From NCBI GenBank assembly GCA_030265395.1, contig JARFYF010000022.1:30471120-30535119 (forward strand): 64,000 bases of DNA, read 5' to 3'. Under the pieces are notes generated by a model that worked only from the letters and a program-made list of their open reading frames with translations, did not search any database and was not told the origin of the DNA. A program made the translations under genes and the position numbers. This stretch comes from Rhina ancylostomus. Its lineage: Eukaryota. Positions 1 to 57,670 of the stretch are shown one piece after another (the stretch's first letter is position 1; each line of letters starts with the position of its first letter).

Positions 1-249
1 TGCATTTCCAGCAGTTTTCTTTTCTCTTCTTCTGGTATCTCAGATNNNNNNNNNNNNNNNNNNNNNNNNNNNNNNNNNNNNNNNNNNNNNNNNNNNNNNN
101 NNNNNNNNNNNNNNNNNNNNNNNNNNNNNNNNNNNNNNNNNNNNNNNNNNNNNNNNNNNNNNNNNNNNNNNNNNNNNNNNNNNNNNNNNNNNNNNNNNNN
201 NNNNNNNNNNNNNNNNNNNNNNNNNNNNCTGTTTCCTTCCAAATGGTTA

Positions 250-332
250 CTGACCTGAAATGTGAACTCTGCTCCTCTCCTCACAGATGCTGCCTGTTGC
301 GTATTTCCAGCAGTTTCTGTTTTATTGAATTC
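250..332 (+). mobile_element. Penelope-like terminal-repeat fragment
   Basis: gacctgaaatg...acagatgctgcctg...tatttccagca, the motif that ends the GIY-YIG-bearing relic at 49.4-50.8 kb. Confidence 0.6.
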
Positions 333-6544: not shown

Positions 6545-7545
6545 CAAGTATAGGAATGCAATTAAAAGGGATATCAAGAAAGTACAGAGAGTGCAAATAA
6601 AACAGACAAGTAAAACCAAAGGAAATCTAAAACTGTTTTATAAATACATAAAGAGTAAGAGGGTAACTAATGAAAGAGTAGTATTTATTGTGGACCAAAA
6701 GCATAGTCCATGTGGGGAGGCAGCGGATGTAGGCAGGACTATGAATTAATACTTTGTGGCTTTTTTCTAAAAGGACATGTTGCCAATGATGTAATTGGAC
6801 AAGTGTGAAATACTGAATGGGATAAACTAGTAAATGAGGAAGTGTTCAGGTGTTTAGCATCTTTTATAGTAGAAAAAAATGCCAGTTCTGATAGAAACAT
6901 CTTCCAGGCTGTTAAAGGAAGGAAGGGGAGGAAATTACTGAGGATCTGACCATCATTTCTCATTGCTACAGGAATGGGACAAAAGGATTGGAAGATTTCT
7001 AATGTTGCACGGTTCTTTAAAAAAGTGAAGGGATGTTCAGTAATTAGAAGTCACTTAGTTTAAATTCATAGATTGTCAACTATTGAAATCAATTCTAAGG
7101 GCTAATATAAATATTTATTTAGAGTTGCTTGAGTTAATCAAGGTCAGTCAACATAAATTTGCTAAGGAGAGATCCAGTCTACCTAGAAGCCAAATAGTGC
7201 AGATGTTAGAAGGTCATTGACCTTAAGATCTTTTTCTCTCTCCACAGATGCTGCCTGATCGGCTGAGTATTTCCAGAATTTTCCATTTTTATTCTTGTCT
7301 GACTAACCTGATTGAAGTTTTTGAGAAAGTAACAATAAAGGTCAATGAGGGCATTGCATTTGACGTAGATTTAAAAAGGTCCACGTGGTAGGCTGATCAA
7401 AGAAGTAAAGACCAATAGGATCCAATGAAGAGTGGCACATTTGATCAGAAGTTGGCATAGTGCCAGGAAACAAAGGGTATGGAGTGAAGGCTGAATGACC
7501 TCCTTCTCCGTCATAAGTTTACTTGGCTTCTATGATTCTGTGAAG
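6545..7545 (+). mobile_element. CR1 LINE relic (ORF2/RT region and 3' tail), interrupted by a Penelope-like fragment at about 7185-7272
   Basis: Decayed FYKYIKSKR, CLTNLIEVFEKVT-like peptides and a ggctgaatgacctccttct...ctatgattct tail; frameshifted. Confidence 0.75.
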
Positions 7546-10640: not shown

Positions 10641-12074
10641 TTAAACTTTAAAACTTTACTTATACAGCACAGTAACAGGCCCCTCCGGCCCAATGTCCCC
10701 ATGCTGCCCAATTACACACACATCTTTAGAATGTGGAAGGAAACTTTTTGTAATACGTTTGATTCATATTCAGCCTGCAAACTTATGAGTGTGTTAGGAC
10801 TTTTTTGCTATTATTGTCTGCATTAATTCCAGTATCAATCTGTCAAAGTTTCTAGTAATTGTTCTCCTTCTCTATACAAAAGCACAATTCTTTTATGCGT
10901 TTCATTGCTGATATGCTTCAATTCAATGGAAGTTCAAGCCTTTGGAGATGGATGGAATCCTTTGAATGTGTCACGACACGTTTTAATATCAGCAATGAAA
11001 CACATAAAAGAATTGTGCTTTTCTATGGAGAAGGAAAACAAATACAAGAAACTTTGACAGACTGATACTGGAATCAATGCAGACAATAATGGCAAAAAAG
11101 CCCCAACACATTCATAAGTTTGCGGTCTAAATATGATTCAATCATATTACAAAAGGCCAGACACACAATAATGGATGTGCAACGTCCCATTCAAAGACTT
11201 ACTTCATCAACAGGCAAAATACAATTTACCCGATTCAGGTCATTAAACTAAGAGAACATAAGCAAAACACAACTGGTCTAATGCAATGGCATTTCATGAT
11301 CAGTATTAACACTTAAGAAAATAAAGAGAAAAGTACCGATAGACTAAGGTTGCAGGCATGAGATGAGAAAAGTATTTTATATGATTTGTCTTCTCAAGTG
11401 GTGACTATTCATTCCTTGATTTCATGAATACAGAATATGGAAAGAACTGCTCTGGTCACTAGTTGCAAAGTGTAATGAAATTATAAATGTTGCCTTTTTG
11501 AATAAAGTCCCAGTATAATTATTTATGGGTACAAAGACAATTCTTTACGTAATTTAGAAAATTTCAAAATACAATCTATGGAGCTTGCCACTCTATTTTA
11601 CAACCTTACTTTGCGTTATTTTATATATTTCTAATGTTAATTTTTTGTACAAATTAGGTTATAAGGTGTAAGTCAAATAATAAGTAACATTCCAGGGAAC
11701 TCCAATCTGATGATGTCATTAAACTGGAAGTTATATTGCTGCCAAGAGTTAAAAAAACAATTATTTGCAATCTGACTTTCATTGTGGCCAAACAGTTTCA
11801 AGATCTTGGCCCAAGGGTGCAATAATAAAATTATTACTGGATTCCTTGCATAGTTAACATGAAGAGGTCAAATAACAAGCACCGAATATGTTTTGATTAG
11901 ATACGGACTTCCCTAATACATCTNNNNNNNNNNNNNNNNNNNNNNNNNNNNNNNNNNNNNNNNNNNNNNNNNNNNNNNNNNNNNNNNNNNNNNNNNNNNN
12001 NNNNNNNNNNNNNNNNNNNNNNNAAAAAAGGCACCAAAATTGGAAGGCAAGGATCAATTCTCGAATGGTGCTGC

Positions 12075-12655
12075 TCAATCCCGACCTCCGGTGCTGTCTG
12101 TGTGGAGTTTGAACGTTCTCCCTGTAACCGCGTGGGTTTCCTCTGGGTGCTCTAGTTTCCTCCCACATCTCAAAGAGGCACGGTAGTGTAGTGGTTAGGG
12201 TAACATCACAACACCAGCGATCCAGGTTCAATTCCGGCCGCTATCTGTAAGGAGCTTGTACATTCTTTCCGTGTCGGCGTGGGTTTCCTCCGGGTGCTCC
12301 GGTTTCCTCCCACATCGCAAAGACATACGGGTTAGGAAGTTGTGGGCATGTTACGTTGGCACTGGAAGTGTGGCAACACTTGCGGGCTGTCCACAGAACA
12401 CTCTGCGCAAAAAGATGTATTTCACTGTGTGTTTCAATGTACATATGACGAATAAAGAAATCTTAAATTGCTTGGTCAATTGGCCACTTTAAATTGCCCT
12501 TAGTGTGCAAGTGAGTGGTAGAATTAAGGGTGGTAGGAAAGCAAAAGCAGGCAAGATAAAATCAGATTAGAGTAGGATTAATGTAAATGGATGTTTGATG
12601 GTTGACACAGACTCAGTGTGCCAAAGGGCCTGTTCCTGTGTTGTATGTCTCTATG
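12075..12655 (+). mobile_element. Older V-SINE split by a younger SINE insertion
   Basis: The 5' half ends at ...cccacatctcaaaga (12176). The 3' half resumes near 12466 (ggtcaattggccactttaaattgccc...ccaaagggcctgttcctgtg). Confidence 0.8.
12177..12465 (+). mobile_element. Young full-length V-SINE (tRNA-derived head)
   Basis: A-box-like ggtagtgtagtgg, B-box ggttcaattcc, V-core gcgtgggtttcctccgggtgctccggtttcctcccaca, 3' aataaaga. CpGs are retained. Same family as 37895-38180. Confidence 0.88.
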
Positions 12656-16234: not shown

Positions 16235-17260
16235 CCAACACATTTTAAGTACTTCTGCACCAAGGAAGAAGTTGCTGTTAGATTCTCAGCAAAGACAGAT
16301 GTAACTGAAACAACTGCAGCTGCTGGAGTCTGGAACGACAAGCTATCTGTTGGAGGAACTCAACAGATGGAACAGCATCTGTAGGGGTGGGGGAAGGAAT
16401 TGTCGGCATTTCAGGTTAAAATCCTGCATCGGGATCCTTCAGCAGAGAGATGTAATTGAAGTTCTGGATGTGCGAAAATTTGAGAAAGAGGAGGCATTAG
16501 AAAGGCCAGCTGCATTTTAGGTGGATAAGACACCCGGTCCAGATGGAATGCATCCCAGAATACCGAGAGAAGTAAGGGAGGAAATTGCAGAGGTCTTGGC
16601 TGTAATTTGCCAACATCTGTAATTTGAGATTAGTGCCCGCGGACTGGAAAACTGCAGATGTTACACCAATATTCAAAAAAAGGGTGTAAGGATAAATCTG
16701 GTAACTATGGACTGGTCAGTTTAATCCTGGTGGAAGAGGAAGTTCTAGAAATAATCATCTGGTACAGAATTAGCAGTCACGTGACCAAGTGTAGACTGAT
16801 TAGGAAAACCTGCATGGATTTATTAAAAGCAAATCGTGTCTAATTAACTTGACAGAGTTGCTCGATAATGTAATACAAGTTTGATGATGGAAATATGGTT
16901 GTCTGGACTTGCAAAATACATTTGAAAAGATGCCAAACAATTGGGTTGCCATTAGGATTAATAACCATGGAATAAATGGGACTGCAAACTGTAGAATGGA
17001 AACAAGTATTAGGGATCTTGTTTGTGGGACTCGAGTGGTGTACAGCATAATTCCTCAGGAATTAGTACCAGGATTATTTTTCTTAATGGATCTTAAGGGC
17101 TTGGATGAACAGGGAGCAANNNNNNNNNNAAACTTGAAGAGGTGGTGAACTGGGAGTAAGAGACTTCAAAGAGATATAGACAGGCTGATGGGATGAATGA
17201 ATAGCTCGTGAGTAAACTTTAATTCCGAGAAATGCAAAGTGTTACATGAGGAGAGGTAAT
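16235..17260 (+). mobile_element. CR1 LINE relic (RT region) with a minus-strand Penelope-like insertion at about 16305-16438
   Basis: DKTPGPDGMHPRIPREVREEIAE, KKGCKDKSGNYGLVSL and RLQRDIDRL, typical CR1 ORF2 motifs; stops and frameshifts. Confidence 0.85.
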
Positions 17261-20628: not shown

Positions 20629-20972
20629 GGCAGCAGAGTGGTGCAGGTAGCAGAGCCGCTGTCTTACAGCTCCTGTGACCCGGATTCAATCCTGAATCCC
20701 AGTACTGTCCGTGTGGAGTTTGCACATTCTCCCTGTGGCTGCATGAGCATCCTCCAGCTACTCCAGTTTCTTCCCACATCCCAAAGATGTGCAGGTTAAT
20801 TGTCCACTGGAAATTGCTCCTAGTGTATAGGCAAGTGGCAAAATCTGGGAGGAGTTGATGGGAAGGTGAGGAGAATAAAACTGGGATTAATGTAGGATTA
20901 GTGCAAGTGCATGGTTGATGGGCTTAGTGGACCAAAGAGCATGTTTCTGTGTTGTATCTCCCTATGATTCTA
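20629..20972 (+). mobile_element. V-SINE, full length, decayed
   Basis: tRNA-like head (gattcaatcc), gtgtggagtttgcacattctccc core, ctatgattcta tail. Confidence 0.8.
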
Positions 20973-21289
20973 TAACAAAGAGATTAGAGGTACTTGCTCA
21001 TTAAAATGTACTAAACAGATACAGAACAAAATCTTGCAAAGACTAACGAATTATTAGATTTTAGTTTGATAGGGAGATAATAAAAAGGAAGTTGATCTAC
21101 AACCACACAAGGAAGACTCCTGAACTACTATGTGCAGGACTTATCAGTGTCCCCCAGGAAAAATACATTGGCTCAGGAGAGAGCACACTTGTGGGTTCAC
21201 CAGAATGGTACCAGAGCTGTATGACATAGATTGAGAGAGGAGATTACAGAATCTAGACTTAAAAAACCAAATTAAAACTGTGGATATTG

Positions 21290-21662
21290 AAATCTGAAAT
21301 GAAAATAGAAATTGCTGGAAAGGCACAGAAGGTCAGGCAGCATCTATAGAGAGAGGAAATGGAGTTGATGAGCTCAGGTCTGGTGAAACATCATAAACCT
21401 GACATGTTACCTGTACTAGAGACACAAAAGACGGCAGATGCTGGAATCTGGAGCAACACACAAAGTGCTGGAGGAACTCAGTGGGTCAGGCAGCATCTGT
21501 AGAAGGAAATGGACAGTTGATGTTTTGGTGGAGGCCCTTCATCTGGACTGAAAGATGGAGGGGAGATAACCCAGATAAAAAGCTGAAAGGAAGGGGTGGA
21601 GCAAGAGCTGGCAGGTGATTGGTGAAGAGATGCTGCCTGTACTTCCAGTATTTCCAGCATTT
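21290..21662. mobile_element. Fold-back Penelope-derived element with a second Penelope-like copy nested at about 21418-21627
   Basis: Minus arm (tgctggaaa...caggcagcatct) at about 21290-21415, plus-arm remnant agatgctgcctg...tatttccagca at 21628-21662, and an inserted minus-strand copy with a hammerhead-like core at 21514-21550. Confidence 0.65.
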
Positions 21663-24889: not shown

Positions 24890-25625
24890 GAGCATTTGAT
24901 GAAAGGTCATGAACCTGAAACGTTGGCTCTATTTACCTCTCTATAGATGCTACTTGACCTGCTGAGTATTTCCAGCATTTCCTGTCTTTGTTTCAGAAAT
25001 TCAGGGTCTTGACAAGGTGTTGCACAAAAATTCATGTTGTCAGGGTGATTATAGCAAGGGATAAAACAAAAATTGGCTGATAAGCAGAATGCAAAAAATA
25101 ATTGAGAGAAATGTGTTTTGGTGAGGTTGGGGAAGAGCTTGAAGTTGTGTGACCCGCGGATCAGTGCTGTGGCCACACTTGTTTTTTGGGACATATAGAA
25201 GATACGGACTTAGGAAAATTGTCACCCAATCTGTGCTTGGTTTCTCCAAAGTGGAGGACATCACATTTGTAGAGGTAGAATAAAACTCTGCTTCACATGG
25301 AAGAAGTGTTTAGGGTACGGGGTGGTGCAAAGGAAAAAGTAAACGAACAAAAGGAACATATTTTGTATCCACTCTGTTTGCATGGGAAGGTGCCACGAGA
25401 AGAGGAATGTATGCTGGTGGAGATGCAAGATTGATCCAGAGTCTCCTGAAGGGAACAATCCCTTTGGAATGCTACAAGGGGAGAGGAGGGGAAGGTGTGT
25501 CTCATGATGTCATCATGTTGGAAGTGGCAGAAATTGCTGCTGTTCCTTTCCCACAGATGCTGCCTGACCTGCAAAGTATTTCCAGCATGTTCTGTTTATA
25601 TTTCCAGTTTCCAGCATATGCAGGT
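24890..25625. mobile_element. Penelope-like element relic: minus-strand linker/GIY-YIG remnant flanked by plus-strand terminal-repeat fragments
   Basis: Minus-strand PLVAFQRDCSLQETL, RGTFPCKQSGYKIC and HFGETKHRLGDNF; repeat motif at 24895-24995 and 25535-25625. Confidence 0.75.
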
Positions 25626-36658: not shown

Positions 36659-36901
36659 TGGTCTGTGCTGGGTGGTAGCCATGTTGTCCCAATCACTGTC
36701 TGGTTGGAGGCTGCTGACAACAGGTGGTAGCTCCTCAGGATGAGGTTTGTTGATTACTATTGTATGCAGGGGCAGGTGTGAGGCTGTGTGCTGGTCATTG
36801 AGCTCCTCCCTTTCCCTCTCCCGTACCAATCTTTCCTGGACCATTGCTTCCTCCCCATCAGCAGAAGCAGCGTACGGAGAGGCAGCTTGTTTGGAAGACA
36901 T
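36659..36901 (-). CDS. SOX6: SOX6 first canonical coding exon, CDS part (81 codons, [10 protein letters not shown]...[12 protein letters not shown]); the exon extends 1-4 nt further 5' to 36902/36905
   Basis: Translation matches the vertebrate SOX6 N-terminus as I recall it (MSSKQATSPF..ADGEDAM..SHLPLH..NKPHSEELP..DWD). A pyrimidine tract and cagCAGA precede the ATG at 36901. Phase-0 donor CCA|gtaagt at 36659/36658. Confidence 0.95.
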
Positions 36902-37270: not shown

Positions 37271-37519
37271 TCTTCCCAACATCTACCTTTGGGTGGTAGA
37301 AGTACCAGCCTGTGTTAGGTAACAGATCCTTTAAAATGCCCATGACATACAGTGCTGACATATTAGGCCAATATTAACCAAAGCGTGTACTGCAAGTTGA
37401 TAGTCTCTCTCAAAATAAGCACCGTATATCCATTATGTTGGTTAGTCTCTCTGGTCCCAGACCCACTTTCCCAGCATCATCATTTTATGAAAATCAAAAA
37501 AAATCTCTTGGACATGTGA

Positions 37520-37838
37520 AACAAAAACAGAAAAAAAAACTAGAAATACTCAACAGATTAGACAGCATCTATGGAAAGAGAAACAGTTAATGTTTCAGGT
37601 CAGAGACCCTTTGTCAGAACTCAAAAAGTGAGAAAGCAAGTTAATTTTCAGTAGCGGAGAAAATGGGGGAGGGATGCTTAGGACAAAGGAAATATCACAT
37701 TAATTCATCTAACTCACCCTACCAGAAATAGTCCCTTTGTTCTACCCTTCTCTTATGGGACCTAAAATGTTAATTCTGTTTCTTTTTCCACAGATGCTGC
37801 CTGACCTGCTGAGTATTTCCAGCATTTTGTGTTTTTGT
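37520..37838. mobile_element. Fold-back Penelope-derived element (inverted terminal-repeat pair)
   Basis: Left arm 37520-37622 is the approximate reverse complement of right arm 37755-37838. Hammerhead-like core on the minus strand at 37584-37622. Confidence 0.75.
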
Positions 37839-37894
37839 CTCCAGCGTAAACAGCTGGTCTTGTCAGAATGGAATCCCTTGGAAGTATATACATT

Positions 37895-38180
37895 TAGATA
37901 AGATAACGTTATTGGTCACATGTACATAGAAAAACACAGTGAAATGCATCTTTTGCACAGAGTGTTCCGGGGGCAGCCCATAACTGTCTCCACACTCCTG
38001 GTGCCAACATAGCATGCCAACAACTTCCTAACCCGTACATATTTAGATGCGGGAGGAAACCGGAGTACCCAGAATAAATCCACGCAGACACAGGGAGAAC
38101 GTACAATCTCCTTACAGACAGTGGCCGGAATTGAACCTGGGTCACTGGTGCTGTAATAGCGTTACACTAACTCCTATACT
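37895..38180 (-). mobile_element. Young V-SINE, same family as 12177-12465
   Basis: Colinear reverse-complement match over about 285 bp. Confidence 0.88.
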
Positions 38181-38291: not shown

Positions 38292-39631
38292 TGTCATGGT
38301 TCTGGGTTCTGGCCCTCAATTTGGCTCCTTTAATGCCTTGTTGTCCAGCACATGGATTCCATGCTGGACTGATTACATAATGACACACACCTGAGCCCCA
38401 TTAGGGGCCTAGCATAAGTACCTGGGTTTCTCTAGCACTAGTTGCCAGAGTATTGGTCTGCCTTTGGCTCCTAGTTGCTTAGAGTGGTCTACTCTAGAGC
38501 AGACCTGTGCTCTCTATTCCTTTCTGAAGATCCAGTTTGTGTTGGGATTCTTCTTCAGATGTCTGAGGCAAAATTCCTTCCAGTTGTTGCATGTGTTTTG
38601 TCCTGAGGAAGTATCCTGACTCCAGTCTTGTATCAGTGTGCTGCATTTGGGTTCTCTGAGCTTGCTCTTTGATCAACATTGTGACAAATGGGATTAGTAT
38701 AGATGATGGCCCAAAGGGCCTGTTTCTACACTATATGATTCTTGTATTCTAGGACCCTAAGATCATAAAAGGGTGAGTACCTTCTGTAAATAGCTCTTGA
38801 TAGTTTGGACACCTCATGTATTAAACACCAGTCTTCATCAGTCTTAAACAGTGATTAGAGGTTTGCTGCCTTCCCCTTCCTCCCTCAGTTCCTCATTATC
38901 TCTCAAACATACCCACAGCAGGGTTGCAAGATGGGCTTCAATTGGGCCAGACTGAGTTATCATTTCTAGTTCAATAATGCTATCTTTGCTTTTATATATT
39001 CAAAACTTATTATTTATTGTGGAGTACAACAGTACAGAGCAAGGAAGCAAAATTTAACTGCACAATTGCATGAAACCTATACATCAGAATCTGGTTTATT
39101 ATCACTGACTTGTATGTTGTGAAATTTGGTGCAAATACATAAAATTACTATAAATTACAAAATAAATAGTGCAAAAAAAAAAGTAGTGTTAATGGACCAT
39201 TCAGAAATCTGATGGCAGAGGGAAAGAAACTGTTCCTGAATCACTGAGTGTGGGTCTTCAGGCTCCTGTACCTCCTCCCTGATGGTAGTAATGAGAAGAG
39301 GGCATGTNNNNNNNNNNNNNNNNNNNNNNNNNNNNNNNNNNNNNNNNNNNNNNNNNNNNNNNNNNNNNNNNNNNNNNNNNNNNNNNNNNNNNNNNNNNNN
39401 NNNNNNNTTTGGCTCCTAGTTGCTTAGAGTGGTCTACTCTAGAGCAGTCCTGTGTTCTCTATTCCTTTTGAAGATCCAGTTTGTATTGGGATTGCTCTTC
39501 TGACCTCTGAGGCAAGATTCCTTCCAGTCACTGCCTGTGTTTTTCCTGAGGAAGTATCCTGACTCCAGTCTTGTATTAGTATGCCACATTTGGGTTCTCT
39601 GCAAGCTTACTCCTTGCTCAACTTTGTGACA
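38292..39631. mobile_element. LTR pair / non-autonomous LTR element: LTR1 38292-38686; LTR2 visible 39408-39631, 5' part hidden by a gap
   Basis: TGTCA...TGACA termini. AATGG at 38287-38291, 38687-38691 and 39632-39636. About 225-bp direct repeat, 38463-38691 vs 39408-39636. Confidence 0.7.
39083..39307 (-). mobile_element. Rex1/Babar-type LINE 3' end, truncated by a gap
   Basis: Reverse complement matches about 44600-44862 (HALFSLLPSGRRYR and tail). Confidence 0.85.
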
Positions 39632-41114
39632 AATGGAACTCTCCTTCAGTCCACCCTCTTCAGCCTCAGATGGTAAGAATTCCTGGGAGGCTTACTTTCA
39701 GCCTCAGCTTGTGTTCCCTCTGCCAATGAATTAGGTGCACAAAATAAACTAGACTTCCCATAGTCTTTTGGGCATCTGCCAGGCTGTCTCTAGTGGATGG
39801 CTGGCCAGTGAGTGCCCTGTGAGAGTGAGGATGGAGGTGTCATTGGATGCAGTGCATGCCAGGGTTCACCACAACATGTTTGTCTAACATTTAGTGGGCT
39901 GTTTGGGGTGAAATCCAAGCAGGAAGACCTAAACAAGTGATTTTAAATTGCCTTTACATATCTACTAATGTTTGTCTCAACACCAAGACTGACCATAAGA
40001 TGGAAACAAGCCACCTGCTGATCCTTGAGCTCAGAAACTGTAGAGGCAAAAGTGAAAGGAAACATTGGAAACTGAAACTTACTAAAAATGGGATAAGAAG
40101 ATTTGTTTAAAAAGTTGGCAATAGACCCCCTTTTCCAATGGATTCTCCAAGCAGTACACCAGCAACAGTTTAGGGTTAGCAACCTATTCCAGACTTTTGC
40201 TGGTGCCTTTTAGAATGCAAGCCACAGGAGTTGAATCAAGACAATTTTGGGACTGGATCTTCACTTTATTTTCCCCTACTCCTTCAGCAGAAGATTGAAC
40301 CCTGTGCAGAACAGGTTTATTGCAGGTGCCACCCAACACACTCTGTCTCGTTTGCGTTCTACCATATGTGATAATAATTGTGGATATGGTGAAGAAAAAT
40401 AAAATTCAAAGTACAATATAATTCTTCATAAATCCTCTGGCCATGCAGATAATTAGCAACCTTATATTAAATCTCAGTGCAGAAACTTCCTCAGGCTTTC
40501 AGAGAGCTGTCTCTTTTTTGAAGGTAAACACGGGATCTTTTTAAAATGACTCTGAATTACAATTATGCAGCACTATCTTGTGTGTGTTTTGAGTACAAGC
40601 TATTTCAAACAGATATTGGCCAAGATGATTCTTTTTAATCAGCTGACTATAAAACAGCACCACCCAAATTGTTAGTTATGTTCACTAGACTCTCAATTCA
40701 TTTAAGACGTTCCTTCTAAAATGAATGGCACGGTAGTGCCTCGCTCACATGTTGACCACAGCAATCCTAAATAAAGTAAAAGTTATTCCATGTGCATTTC
40801 TCTTGGCCTCAAGCTTGACATTTGCAAGCATTTCCCAATCTGCAAGTTTTCCCACCAGAAGCAATTCATTCCTAACTAATTTTGCAATTTATGAGGAGTA
40901 ATTATTGTGAGGCTTATGTTCATCTTCATGAAGTGCAATACAAAGTACATTAAAAGGTACAATTCACAGCTTAATCATCTAACTTAGTTTATCAATCAAA
41001 GATATGATTCTCAGTTCAATATCAAGTAAACTTAAAATTGAAGCAGCGACTAACAAATAATTTTATACACTAGGAGACCTTCCACTGGAACCAGAGGCTG
41101 AATCAATTTGAACT

Positions 41115-41446
41115 TACACAGAGTCACAGAGCATGGAAACAAGCCCTTCAGCCCACATGTGAACATCAAGCACTAATCTCATTTTTCCTTTCACATCTCC
41201 ATCAACTACTCTCTTCACCGATTCTCTTGGCACCCACTCTCACTAGGCACAATTTGCAATGGCCATTTAACCCATGAACCAGCCAATTTTGGCATGTGGG
41301 AGGAATCCAGTCCACTCAGAGAAAACCCTCGCTATCACAGGGTGAACATGCAAACTCCACACAGACAGCAGCCAAGGCCACCATCGAACCTGAGTCACTG
41401 TAGCTGTGAGGCAGCAGTGCTAACCACTATACTACTGTGCCACCCA
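41115..41446 (-). mobile_element. V-SINE, decayed
   Basis: acatgcaaactccacacagacagca core; aagcccttcagccca tail. Confidence 0.75.
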
Positions 41447-48295: not shown

Positions 48296-49446
48296 ATATT
48301 GGTTCTACTTCCTGATTGCTTGCTGCAGAGAGTAAATTTACTTTGTACTCTATTCTGTAAAATGCCCAAATCAGTTAACCTTAGGTAATCATACCAGCAT
48401 TTTTCAAATTAGCAAAATCATTAAATTCCTCGTATGGTTTCTTCAAGCAAATACATCCTGATTAAAATGCTCATAAAGCACTGTATAACTGTTAAAGACA
48501 AAATTTACAAATCTGTCACATGTTTTCATGAATATTTCAGTGAATGAAGTGCTTGAAATATCAGGTGCAAGATAAAATAATTAAGCTAATCCCTATTTAA
48601 ATAGGAATTTTATGAAGCAGTCCATGTTTCAAAAAGGATTTAACAGCTATTGCCACAACTCTCACAATTTATGGAGGTTTTGCAGCGTGGAGTTCTATCT
48701 TCCAGGGGAAAAAATTAATATAAGAGAGACTAAGAAATTAATGAGATTCACTAATCCAATTATGGACTTTTTTTAATAAATATATTTTGAAAAACACATA
48801 AATATTTCAAAATTGCATCTGAGAAATCACAGTGGCAGCAATTTAGAGTCAAATTATACATAATGAGGAAATACTCTGATCAATTGTCTTTCATATTTAA
48901 TATTAATGATTTACAGGTTTCATGTTTCTAGATGATGAGGAGTACATAAATTGTGGATGGCTGGCAGTGAGTTACACAACGTAGCCCAATTCAATAGTTC
49001 CAACTTGTCACTAACTTTAAAACTGAAGACTACAAGCATCACACGCCGATATGTCAGCCCCACTGGTGTGCCTCTGATTGGATCCATACACTCACATGAT
49101 CTTTCACTGTGGGTCACTTTCTCTTTCACTATAATAGGTGATTGCAAGGCTATGGAGAAAAAATAGCGAGTGGGTCCAATTGTGCAGAATTTTCTAAGAG
49201 CCGGAGCAGGCATAATAAATCAAGTGACCTGCTGTAAGATTCTATGTTTCTTTAAGTGTAGCATTATGAATTAATAGTGAATTTTAATAAATTCAACTAA
49301 CACTTGTTTACCGGTGTTCACCTAGATCTTGCCATTTAACTCCATTAATACTGTTCCTTTTTACTTCACTCTCACATTTTTTCCACACTCTTCTCCGTGG
49401 TGATGAGCTGCTTCCTTGAATGGCTGAAATCCTTCTGGTGAAGGTT

Positions 49447-50757
49447 AAAACTGAAAATGCGAGAAAGTCACCAGGTCAGACAACAACTGTGCAAAGACAG
49501 AGTTAATATTTCAGGTTGAGGTCCAACTGTCAGAACTGGGGAAGGAAAACAATTTGGTTACAAGTTGCAGAGAGGTTGGGGAAGAATGGACAGGACAAAG
49601 GAAATATCTGTGATAGTGTGTGGCCAGGGTTCCCATGGTGATAAGCTGTTGATGAAGCCATCCAGGTGATATATTAATAAGGGAAATTAGAGAGAAAGCA
49701 AACAAAGGGACATGTTAGAGTTGTGAAATGCGGGTCAAAGTTATAAAAAACAGCAGATCACGTAGTTTCAGTGAAGAGAGAAAAACTGAGTTTGTATTAG
49801 AAATGGGTAACCTGCAGCAGAATTGGCCAGTAGAGAAAACAAAGTATCTGAAATTGTTGAATTCTATATGGAGTCCTGAATGCTACATTGTGCCCAAATA
49901 GAAAATGCTGTCATCAATTTTATGTTGGGCCTGGTTGGAAAAGTGTAGGAAGTCCAAGACAGAAAATATACTCTTTTACCTCATCCTTTCTAACCAACTG
50001 GAGATCCAAACAGTCCTTTCAGATGAAGCAGAGATTCACTTCTACTTCTTCTCACTTTTAGTGTATTATATTCATTATTCACAGCGTGGCCTTGTCTACA
50101 TCAGAGCCAAGGGCTCAGTTTGAATGATCACTTTGCAGAGCACCTACGTTCATTCTGAAAGGGTGACACTGAGCTTCCAGCTGTTTGTCACTTTAATTCT
50201 TCATCCCACCCTGACGTATCTGTTGCTGGCATCCTGCACTATTCCAATGAGGCCCAAAGTAAATTTGAAGAATGGGACCTCATCTTCCATTCAGGCACAT
50301 TGCAACCATCAGGATTCAATGTCATATTCAAGAGTTTCAGATAATTTGCTTTCTCTGTATCAAAACCGATCGATTATCCATCTGTAATATTAATTCATTT
50401 TTTCTCTATTTGCTGATACAACTTGACCTGCTGGTCATTATTAATAGCGCTGACCAACATTTCACAACTTTTACATGTTCCTTTATTTGTTTTCTTTTGC
50501 TCTAACTTCTCCCATTAATCTATCAAACAGATGGCTTCATGAACAGCTTATCACCACTGCAACACTGGCCGCACCCTCTCAGATATATTCCCTTTGTCCT
50601 ACCCATCCCTCTGCTACCCTTTTTGCACATTGAAGCTAATTTGATTCGTTGCTTTCCCAGTTCTGATGAAGGGCCTTTGACAAGATCCATTAATTCTGTT
50701 TCTCTTTCCACAAATGCTGCCTGACCTGCTGGATATCTTCAGCATTTTCTGCTTTTG
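49447..50757 (+). mobile_element. Penelope-like retroelement relic with GIY-YIG endonuclease remnant and an inverted copy of its 3' region
   Basis: Plus-strand KQSFQMKQRFTSTSS / LVYYIHYSQRGLVYI / LNDHFAEHLRS at about 50008-50155 (frameshifted). About 49447-49965 is the diverged reverse complement of about 50215-50757. Confidence 0.85.
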
Positions 50758-53700
50758 AATCACAGCCCCAGATTCTATTCACTGACAGTCCCAACTTGTC
50801 CCCTCTGTTGCTGACCACTTGATCATGGGACAAAAATGAAAGTCACCACAAAAATTTCAAAACACATCTACACTTTAATATGCAATAAAGCATGATTTCA
50901 AGCCAATTAAGCACCTCTGTGCATCCCCTTGGTCCCTGCCTTTAAAGTGCCTTTGGCTGACTTGACATTCCTGTGTAACGTCATACCAGTGACTCCAGCA
51001 TAGCTGATGGAAGACTGATGAGGAGGGAGATGCAGAGAGCCTTATGGGATGACCACATGCAGCTCTGGGTTTCAAAGGCCTGGCTGCCTCCACCATCTTG
51101 GTAGGAACCACAGTAGTACAGGCTAGCTGCCAGAAATGATAAACATGAGCACTGGCAGAGTAGCAAGAAATGGAAGAGGGGGGCTACCTTACTGGGAGAT
51201 CACAGGAAGCTCATGCGCCATGGATCTATTCCCACTCTTCCGGGATGTTAGGTGGCTGCTGCATCTGGTTTAAAGGAACCTAGTGTCCTTAGCCACCATT
51301 GTGGTTGGGGAAGCAAGTGTGCAAATGGAGTCGGTTATTATTTCCACATGGGAATGAGTGGGCTACAAGCTGACTGCAAAACTTCAGACCATGTTGGTGT
51401 TGCATTGCTCCATGCCACTAGCCTTTGAAAGCAAGCTTTCTGGCAGACTTCCCAGAAAACTAAACAAATGGCAGTGCTTGCCCAACAAAGTCTTCCTCTG
51501 ATATTAGTATAGGAAAAATCATGCGAATCACTATGCAGAGAGCAGTCATGTGCATTATCTTTTCCCCTTGCCCTGTCTACAGTTTATGTGCTCAATGTTT
51601 TATCATATACACAATGTACCATTATTTTTTCTTCTAAGTCACACACACTGTCAATATCAGAGCTAATAGCTACAAATTTAGAAGGGCTTTTTTGGTGTTC
51701 TTTACTGGCTAGGTTTCTGCTCATGGATCTTTGAAAGGAAATAAGACAAGCATAAGGCTAAGATCTGGTGAAATTAAAAGGCGCAGGTTTACAGCATCTT
51801 ACAAGAGTGTGGGTTGAGGGTATGATGGAATGTCAAGATTAGGCATAAAGATGCTGTCATCTCATTTCACCCAGAGCTGATAGCCTCAACGACTGTCCTG
51901 ATAATTGTCCATATACTGTCCTCCATGCTGGTTAGGACATTTAGTTGCACTTGTTCTCCTCCAGATAGCTCCTGCTGCCTTGACTGTCCTGCTTTTGAGA
52001 AGAAATGGAGTTCTTAGTAATATACAATCTGTTTAAGTGATGATATTATCATAGTGGAATAGCTGGGGGTGTAGATGTGAGACCTGCAGCAGTGCCAAAT
52101 GTGCAAGAGTGCACGGACAATGCGAGACCATTGGGACTGCTCCCTATTAGAGATTGCTTGTCGGTGGGCCATGTCTGATGGTAGTGGTGCAGATGGTGGA
52201 TTATGCATTTGAAAAACCATTCTTTGTGAGGCCTTGACTCTTGGTCCTTTGCAGTTTGGGCATATCTGGGGAGCACACTGATTCTCTGAGAATGCAGGGC
52301 ATCTCTCCTACTTTGCATCTTCTCTGTCACAGATTCTGGTGCAGTATCTGAAAAGCTTTTAAATCTGCAGTCTGCTACGTTCTGCCATTCTATGTTTTGC
52401 ATATCAGATTCATTTGGAAACCTTCTGCCAAAACCTGGTCAAACCCACTGCTGCTTCTCTTTAGCGGGTGCAGGTTAGGCTTAAGAGATTCGGGCTTGTT
52501 TTTACTGAAGCTGGCCACTCATGCTCTTGGCCTTTAGAGCCAATATACCATTGGCTGAACACTGAAATTATTAAAATGAATAAGGAGCACAAGATTGGTG
52601 TGGTACCTGCTTTACAATCAATGGATATGGATTAATCATGCACTGTAATCCTGTGACCATTTCTAAGTGTTATTGAATTCAGCACCCATTTTGTTTTTGA
52701 AGAGGATAAGAAGTAATCTACAATGGACTGATGATCTGAGGTAAACAAATGAGCAGAGAATCAGTGTGTTTCCCAGATGCACTGAGGCTGCAAAGGAGCA
52801 AGAGTTAAGGCCTCACAGGGGAGTCAAGGTTATTGAATGCCACAATCCACCATCTGCACCACCACCGTCAGACAGAACTCATTGAAATACATCACTCACC
52901 AACCAGCAATCTCTATTGATCAGGACTTCTAATAATCTCACGTGGTCCCCGCATCTCGCACACTTCGCACAGCTGCAGGTCTCACATTCACATCACCAGC
53001 TATTCCACTATGATAGTCATATCATTCAAACAGATTGCACATGACTTAGAGCCACACTTCTGAGAATCATTCATTAAAATAGACTAGGTAATGATCATTC
53101 TTCAGATTAAAAACCTCTGATGTCAGAAAAAGGATACAAGCTTTTTGTGGCCTTTCAAATTTTTGCCTAATCTACATTTACTTTTATCTTAGATATTAAA
53201 TATTGCTTGAACTAATGAGCAAGTTGATTACATTCACTTTCATAGCTCTCAATTATCAACTACAAATACTTCCTGTCAATTCAAAATTGAAACAATTAAG
53301 TCAATTTTACTGAACTTACTTGCCATGCATTGACAAATCTTTGACAATTCCAATGTCATGCACTTGCTTGCGTAAAGGTGGATGGCAAATGGTAAACAAG
53401 AAAGAAGCTGATTTTTCCTACCGAGGCGCAGAAACAAAATCTCTACCAGTAGTTATCCTTATTGAACAGTCATCCACTTTACTCAACTATTTTAATTAAG
53501 CAATATTGCCCATTAATCAAGCACTTAATGGGTTTTCATCTGTTTTAATAGAGTTCTGTAAAAATAGCAAAGAAAATTCATTCATGCCACTCCCACAGAA
53601 TTTCAGAATTCTTGATCAAAAGGAAAAAAAAATTTATCTTATTTTCACAATGTAGTGGGTGGATATTAATTTTAACTGAGATAGCACAACCAATAGATGC

Positions 53701-57317: not shown

Positions 57318-57670
57318 GGGGGCCACAGTGGTACAGTGGTTAGTGCGCCTATCTCACAATTCTGGGGCCTGGGTACTATCCTGACCTTGGGGTTGTCTGT
57401 GTGGAATTTTCATGTTCTTCCTGTGACCTCGTGGGTTTCCTCCAGGAGCTCCGGTTTCCTCCCATGTTGAAAACATGCTGGTAATTGACTACTATAATCT
57501 ACCCCTTACTTAGGGAAATCAAAAAAAAGTTGAGTTGATGGACACAAGAAAGAATAGGTCAAAGGCTACAGGAAAAATAGGAGAGGGAGAATGGGACTGA
57601 TGGGATAGCTGTGTTTGAAGCCAGCATGGACTGGATGAGCCAAACGGCCTCTTTCTGTGTTGTAACGAGT
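57318..57670 (+). mobile_element. V-SINE
   Basis: gtggtacagtggttag head, cgtgggtttcctccaggagctccggtttcctccca core, gagccaaacggcctctttctgtg tail. Confidence 0.8.

Follow-up and report, generated by a model that had tools for sequence, protein, structure and literature searches.

The window, a stretch of 64 000 nucleotides from Rhina ancylostomus, holds a coding exon of SOX6 and, on the same strand, a decayed hammerhead motif within a truncated copy of a Penelope-like element (PLE), together with further remnants of the same repeat family (Table 1). The frame at 36901-36659 is 95% identical to the stingray and manta SOX6 entries. In contig coordinates (C22), SOX6 coding exons reach 30212731, and upstream exons lie at about 30546004, 30559970 (a weak match) and 30712887. 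Since SOX6 runs on the minus strand and its upstream exons lie beyond the window, the focal copy is sense-intronic, confirming the setting given in a first-pass annotation made from the letters alone.

That annotation had read the minus strand at 37622-37584 as gagtt-CTGACAA-agggtc-tct-gacct-GAAA-CA-TT-aactg, in exact agreement with the letters, and had identified it as a minimal type-I hammerhead. The identity is upheld by the family: genome-wide, the full motif with its stems occurs in 1462 exact copies vs 0 in the control, and a loose core pattern gives 4446 matches vs 322 in the reversed control. Stem II is a hairpin, as proposed, but not one with an A-U first pair; it consists of GGGUC/GACCU, with G-U as the first pair and an unpaired A in front. 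Hammerhead positions follow the standard numbering scheme, which is also that of PMC4209133. The focal motif is the sole match in the window to a 35-letter subfamily pattern when up to three mismatches are allowed (it has two), and 100 shuffles gave no match. A scan of the window against Rfam at E values up to 10 returned no hammerhead, the focal monomer folded no better than shuffles (z -0.22), and none of seven sequences folded as monomers clearly beat shuffles (best z -1.73).

The changes in the focal motif are G8A and a broken ACGU palindrome. With A at position 8 and C3 unchanged, the G8-C3 pairing that a working hammerhead requires fails. Loop III reads ACAU, which is not self-complementary, so the requirement for helix III fails as well, and no intact partner lies nearby; the closest same-strand copies are 12 and 16 kb off, both defective. 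In a PLE hammerhead, G8 pairs with C3, and G8C or single changes of the pair abolish it (PMC11167929); the double change U3-A8 is the only tolerated variant of that pair given in the available portions of PMC3088659. Even intact minimal hammerheads are described as inactive as monomers and weak as dimers (PMC4209133). In the predicted fold of a 361-nt pre-mRNA segment (-128.6 kcal/mol), base pairs to the inverted partner take up the 3' half of that motif. Because G8A stands opposite an unchanged C3, ACAU is unable to form the dimer helix, the predicted fold ties up the 3' half of the motif in the inverted partner and the nearest same-strand copies are distant and defective, the focal copy is likely inactive as a ribozyme.

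The focal copy is ~20% diverged, similar to other copies, and a search for a target-site duplication at its insertion found nothing longer than 6-mers. The window also contains a second dispersed repeat family, SINE-like (12075-12465, 20686-20787, 37899-38157, 41288-41417 and 57374-57475), one copy of which lies directly upstream of the focal insertion. Other repeats comprise a local duplication (38463-38691 / 39408-39636; period ~945 nt, 85-97% identical) and two structures unrelated to the motif: a long inverted repeat at 10746-11154 (two 169-nt arms with 89% complementarity, separated by 71 nt) and nested inverted arms at ~52001-53061 that resemble a DNA transposon or MITE.

Table 1. Hammerhead motif, PLE remnants and SOX6 exon in the window
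Feature	Position	Strand	Basis or remark
Decayed minimal type-I hammerhead (focal motif)	37584..37622	-	pattern match, alignment, fold
Stem I of focal motif	37621-37618 with 37588-37585	-	
Core of focal motif	37617-37611	-	G8A at 37612
Extra A of focal motif	37610	-	between positions 9 and 10.1
Stem II of focal motif	37609-37605 with 37601-37597	-	
GAAA of focal motif	37596-37593	-	
Loop III of focal motif	37592-37591	-	palindrome broken
Would-be cut of focal motif	between 37589 and 37588	-	
SOX6 coding exon (MSSKQ...)	36659..36901	-	~680 nt downstream of focal motif, same strand
5'-truncated pseudo-LTR copy with focal motif (pyrimidine tract, motif, tail)	37509..37696	-	alignment to relatives
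Inverted partner, back to back with focal copy; 5' half of motif deleted	37696..37847	+	profile 37758-37847; start near 37696 read by eye
Inverted truncated PLE copy	49440..49901	-	motif 49542-49440 (G8A, broken palindrome); last endonuclease codons
PLE 3' end	49973..50770	+	GIY-YIG C-terminal remnant 50120-50341, UTR, decayed motif 50663
Copy starting at front edge of motif	24897..25004	+	lacks C3 and stem I 5' strand; palindrome kept
PLE ORF remnant (linker and endonuclease region)	25170..25538	-	back to back with tail copy 25544-25617 (+)
Two tandem copies	21287..21552	-	upstream one, 21552-21453, has decayed motif (U4A, G12A)
Decayed copy of the C-at-9 subfamily	16347..16438	-	16430- has U4C
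Truncated, decayed copy	7211..7297	+	profile
Truncated, decayed copy	242..327	+	profile

Copies in and around SOX6

A profile built from 55 natural copies found 11 copies in the window, 149 in the surrounding 1.064 Mb and 0 in the reversed sequence. The first-pass annotation had stated that every copy it read carries a core defect; the five sites it cited besides the focal motif are present, belong to the same family and are each defective (the copy at 50653+, with its motif at 50663, has lost GAAA). Stem I is covered by the alignment in 54 of the 149 copies; two of these keep all catalytic residues and none also keeps the palindrome, counts in which intact copies are possibly too few as 8.5% of the region is N, often bordering young copies. 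Just one other core in the 1.064 Mb is intact, but it lies antisense to SOX6 and its stem I is missing the 5' strand.

Within the SOX6 unit, 35/67 copies are in sense orientation (p 0.81), as are 14/27 solo insertions. Sense depletion was not found among these 67 copies, in a strand test blunted by the many insertions that deliver both strands. Copy density is 142 per Mb within SOX6 vs 163 per Mb outside, and neither strand nor density gives a sign of selection for or against the SOX6 copies. Most insertion clusters (63/99) are solo; the 36 multi-copy clusters include 17 simple back-to-back pairs and two face to face. The back-to-back inverted layout is a described PLE insertion structure (PMC4209133, PMC8557442). 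At ~30879577-30880365 of the same contig (G000:C22), five copies of alternating strand lie within 0.8 kb.

Parent element and family core

The proposed PLE origin of the repeat is borne out by a tandem junction, L153 (G000:C2762), in which a GIY-YIG end (a 211-codon frame to 636) is followed by a UTR, an intact motif (925-961) and the start of the next ORF. The two frames match the two ends of homologues that carry both RVT_1 and GIY-YIG (P0134, P0145), the new open frame matching the N-termini of full-length homologues. The hammerhead of the parent element thus sits between the GIY-YIG end and the next ORF start. A homologue search from the L153 frame yielded 28 proteins that passed, and none of one candidate passed in a search from a 61-aa remnant in the window. 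Pfam recognized GIY-YIG in the L153 frame just below its cut-off (E 2.3e-4, 21.8 bits vs 22.6) and left the other 15 of 16 fragments unnamed. This C-terminal GIY-YIG domain has the cysteines and histidines of the CCHH motif, a CX4CXXC linker ahead of the endonuclease and cysteines within the GIY-YIG motif. At another locus (L313), a YIDD reverse transcriptase motif lies upstream of a related hammerhead motif; the linkage of reverse transcriptase and endonuclease is pieced together from homologues and partial loci rather than from one full-length copy. The focal copy is 76% identical to L153 919-1033 over 115 nt, and endonuclease remnants lie upstream of several copies, including the window copy at 50663.

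Across at least four subfamilies, N7, loop II and the UTR vary while CUGA, G8, GAAA, UH and the ACGU palindrome are kept. An extra A between positions 9 and 10.1 is present in 74/82 aligned copies, and ACGU is the loop III state of intact copies, the other states being products of CpG decay. Cervera and De la Pena (PMC4209133) describe both the extra nucleotide and the palindrome for minimal hammerheads.

Both departures of the focal motif had been ascribed to CG>CA decay, and the mutation spectrum at positions 7-8 and in loop III fits this. Among 100 listed of 386 matches of the focal subfamily, positions 7-8 read TG in 56, CA in 23, CG in 8, TA in 7 and other letters in 6, and loop III reads CA in 43, TG in 27, TA in 12, CG in 9 and other letters in 9 (hand counts that include the focal copy; 30 unselected copies counted by script give a concordant picture). 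Because CA is threefold more frequent than TA at positions 7-8, CUGACAA copies most likely descend from CUGACGA, a core still present in L153. The earlier reconstruction of CTGACGA therefore stands as the likely ancestor of these copies, but the commonest core in the subfamily today is CUGAUGA, and the TG surplus suggests that part of the subfamily began in that form. Position 11.1 is U in 98 of the 100 listed matches, vs the usual G10.1-C11.1 pair, which is present in L153 and in the subfamilies with a 2-nt loop. U11.1 is probably a lineage trait, since U11.1 and A1.1 variants both occur in contigs of four runs mapped to L153; it may instead be a third CpG decay, with 2/30 copies reading CA.

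The stem I pair 2.1-1.1 is U-A in 386 copies genome-wide, C-A in 96 and Y-G in 2664 (96 C and 4 T among the first 100 Y-G). Pairing here is kept, yet the signal reflects one or two lineage events. In a 12-row alignment, pairing holds in 86% of the cells of the stems (10-45% after sliding), and three pairs show two-sided change, a number reached by 68/500 shuffles. Covariation in this alignment is not above shuffles, 43 to 141 of 500 reaching the observed values. The first-pass annotation had expected both a CUGANGA/GAAA consensus and covarying stems I and II; CUGANGA and GAAA are indeed in the family core, but covariation is confined to that one stem I pair and does not exceed shuffles in the 12-row alignment.

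Copy starts and the C-at-9 subfamily

Start points were read in two sets, 149 catalogue copies and 60 selected by tail alone, of which 16 and 19, respectively, were dropped as short, unaligned or N-cut. Of the 174 remaining, 132 start between -60 and +55 of C3. Starts at -8 to +1 number 43/132 vs 43/556 in a control of uniform random truncation of 16 long natural copies (p 3e-12; one copy was counted twice, leaving 42 distinct). At the cut site there is no pile-up (4/132 vs 12/556 in the control). None of the 43 front-edge copies has the upstream pyrimidine tract of long copies, and the sole upstream sequence common to them is that of inverted element copies (11/43), which argues that these starts are true ends. 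In long copies, the tract and a CAG immediately precede the motif, a context compatible in our view with a 3' splice site consensus or with an initiator whose A is the base that opens stem I.

From the copy ends alone, these results suggest that uncleaved RNA beginning at the front edge of the motif gets copied; reverse transcription may also stall at stem I. Run-off copying of uncleaved RNA agrees with the Anolis PLE, for which unprocessed RNA is reported as the main substrate (PMC11167929). Three loci (L259, L313 and L334) join one spot in the ORF interior to the motif region and are ~1 kb shorter than normal. Their joints differ slightly, none has GT, and the query favoured such matches; recurrent template jumps are a possible origin.

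A further 1155 exact copies read CUGANG-C-A, with C where A9 is expected. This C-at-9 subfamily (L221-L250, and 16347-16438 in the window) has its own flanks in 17/30 loci, often carries a GUC triplet and is preceded by same-strand endonuclease remnants in 3/17. This C may have been inserted after G8, with A9 itself retained. No description of this core was found in the literature searched, which included portions of PMC3088659; Lunse et al. 2016 may have it. Tentatively, and with more doubt than confidence, we propose that the 5' end of ray PLE RNA lies at the first base of stem I and that this RNA is copied without being cleaved, thousands of stumps thereby mapping its start site, and that a lineage of >1100 copies swapped A9 for C (or gained C after G8), representing either a new working core or proof of spread without cutting.

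Readings of the motif and related elements

We interpret the focal motif as a decayed minimal type-I hammerhead in a 5'-truncated PLE pseudo-LTR within a SOX6 intron, likely inactive neutral debris (probability ~0.9). The family is one of PLE minimal hammerheads, a feature of PLEs that is already known, and the focal copy fails two requirements of a working ribozyme (G8-C3 and helix III). By analogy with published work on other PLEs, the parent motif would dimerize via its ACGU palindrome and, in that state, cleave slowly. Judging from copy starts, reverse transcription of many stumps likely begins in the tail, ~70-100 nt behind the motif, and would proceed to run-off at the 5' terminus of an uncleaved RNA whose start lies at stem I. 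The focal stump is shown to have inserted together with its inverted partner, in the usual PLE structure, and going by the mutation spectrum, deamination of methylated CpG most likely removed its G8 and palindrome afterwards. By itself the focal copy matters little, as there are ~150 such stumps per megabase; the family as a whole documents, in a large natural sample, how PLEs use hammerheads, and its front-edge ends and C-at-9 lineage point to the copying of uncleaved RNA, which bears on the role of the ribozyme in PLEs.

Resemblance by chance in an ordinary repeat, which the Rfam scan, the fold scores and the covariation values would allow, is the least credible reading and very nearly negligible: core, extra nucleotide, palindrome, UH and pseudo-LTR position are all as published and at the place expected in a PLE, and the stems pair far better in register than when slid. 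Hardly more credible is a co-opted role for the focal copy or for neighbouring copies in cutting or regulating SOX6 pre-mRNA. The sense orientation of the focal copy, 680 nt upstream of a coding exon, would suit such a role, and intronic hammerheads are known in amniotes (PMC3088659), but G8A, the broken palindrome, the lack of a near partner and the predicted sequestration by the inverted copy speak against it, as do the unbiased strands and densities, a divergence like that of other copies and the fact that the only intact core in the region is antisense and lacks the 5' strand of stem I.

Two alternatives concern the family rather than the focal copy. The front-edge copies might be cDNAs of spliced RNA; the tract and CAG would then mark a 3' splice site, and the pseudo-LTR would contain an intron like that of Drosophila virilis Penelope, which ends at helix I (PMC4209133, PMC2377424). 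C, A and G at -5 to -3 occur in 48, 48 and 51 of 54 long copies, counts to be read with the tract as the sorting criterion and G present in most search patterns. The 43 front-edge copies nevertheless have no upstream exon in common, and an ORF interior is joined in 1/52 tract-less copies, at a site without GT; on these two grounds we prefer a start site and regard splicing as improbable. Less easily set aside, though still unlikely, is that some function unrelated to cleavage (as a promoter, protein-binding or template signal) maintains the parent motif and that cutting is dispensable for the element. The 1155 exact C-at-9 copies are a genuine subfamily, having distinct flanks and endonuclease remnants, copy ends do not pile up at the cut, catalytic mutants of the Anolis PLE insert normally in vitro, and none of its RNA-seq reads is reported to end at the cut in the portions of PMC11167929 available. 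Weighing for retained cleavage is the persistence of CUGA, G8, GAAA, UH and ACGU through at least four subfamilies despite the changes at N7, loop II and UTR, and a C inserted between G8 and A9 may leave A9 intact.

As in the minimal hammerheads of metazoan PLEs described by Cervera and De la Pena 2014 (PMC4209133), the ray motif has a type-I layout with a short stem I, an extra nucleotide between 9 and 10.1 and a palindromic 15.2-16.2, and it occurs mostly in solo truncated copies and in opposite-strand pairs 100-700 bp apart. It differs in its stem II, of 5 bp vs 7-8 bp in Schistosoma, in the G10.1-U11.1 of the focal subfamily, in the C at 9 of one ray subfamily and in the decay of the focal copy. 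Minimal hammerheads were found in fish Neptune, Poseidon and Xena elements (PMC4209133), and the motif is treated as general to PLEs (PMC6765202). The available portions of PMC4209133, with two supplement files, name no cartilaginous fish, and our literature search found no study devoted to the minimal hammerheads of rays or sharks. With the Anolis Poseidon element PAc (Frangieh et al. 2024, PMC11167929) the ray family shares a hammerhead near the ORF start, copies that end in a tail ~100 nt behind it and an absence of ends at the cut site. The ORF of PAc starts inside stem II, whereas the next open frame of L153 lies >100 nt behind the motif, and the activity of PAc was measured, whereas the ray family is known here from sequence. 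Non-LTR retrozymes, reported in the one chondrichthyan sampled (bioRxiv 10.64898/2026.07.22.740005), are likewise PLE-derived with a type-I hammerhead. They form tandem arrays with a motif per unit and are depleted in Xenopus introns, in contrast to the ray copies, stumps that are scattered and not clearly depleted in SOX6. Retrozyme identity was rejected, as 63/99 clusters are solo and 0/54 copies intact.

The ray family has the insertion traits of EN+ PLEs, namely tandem or inverted pseudo-LTR insertions with 5' truncation. Like Neptune-clade EN+ PLEs (PMC8557442), it has a C-terminal GIY-YIG with two internal cysteines, a CX4CXXC linker, a tandem ORF-pLTR-ORF junction and inverted 5'-truncated partner copies. 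The parent is a putative Neptune-like PLE, placed by motifs only, the zinc-finger linker among them, and Nematis has the same linker; a CX2-5CXXC linker with cysteines inside GIY-YIG is given for both Neptune and Nematis (PMC8557442). The 5' part of the second L153 ORF (1057-1700) is near-unchanged in contigs from three runs of different coded organisms (pieces of 455-732 nt with 0-2 differences), and six coded organisms hold ~0.8 of its words; close kinship, recent transfer and a shared source are alike compatible with this near-identity. Three ray proteins (P0125, P0130 and P0146) that bear host-gene names (divergent kinase domain 1C, mucin-2, chitinase-domain 1 isoforms) match the PLE endonuclease end at 60-67%, element sequence taken into gene models through annotation error or exonisation.
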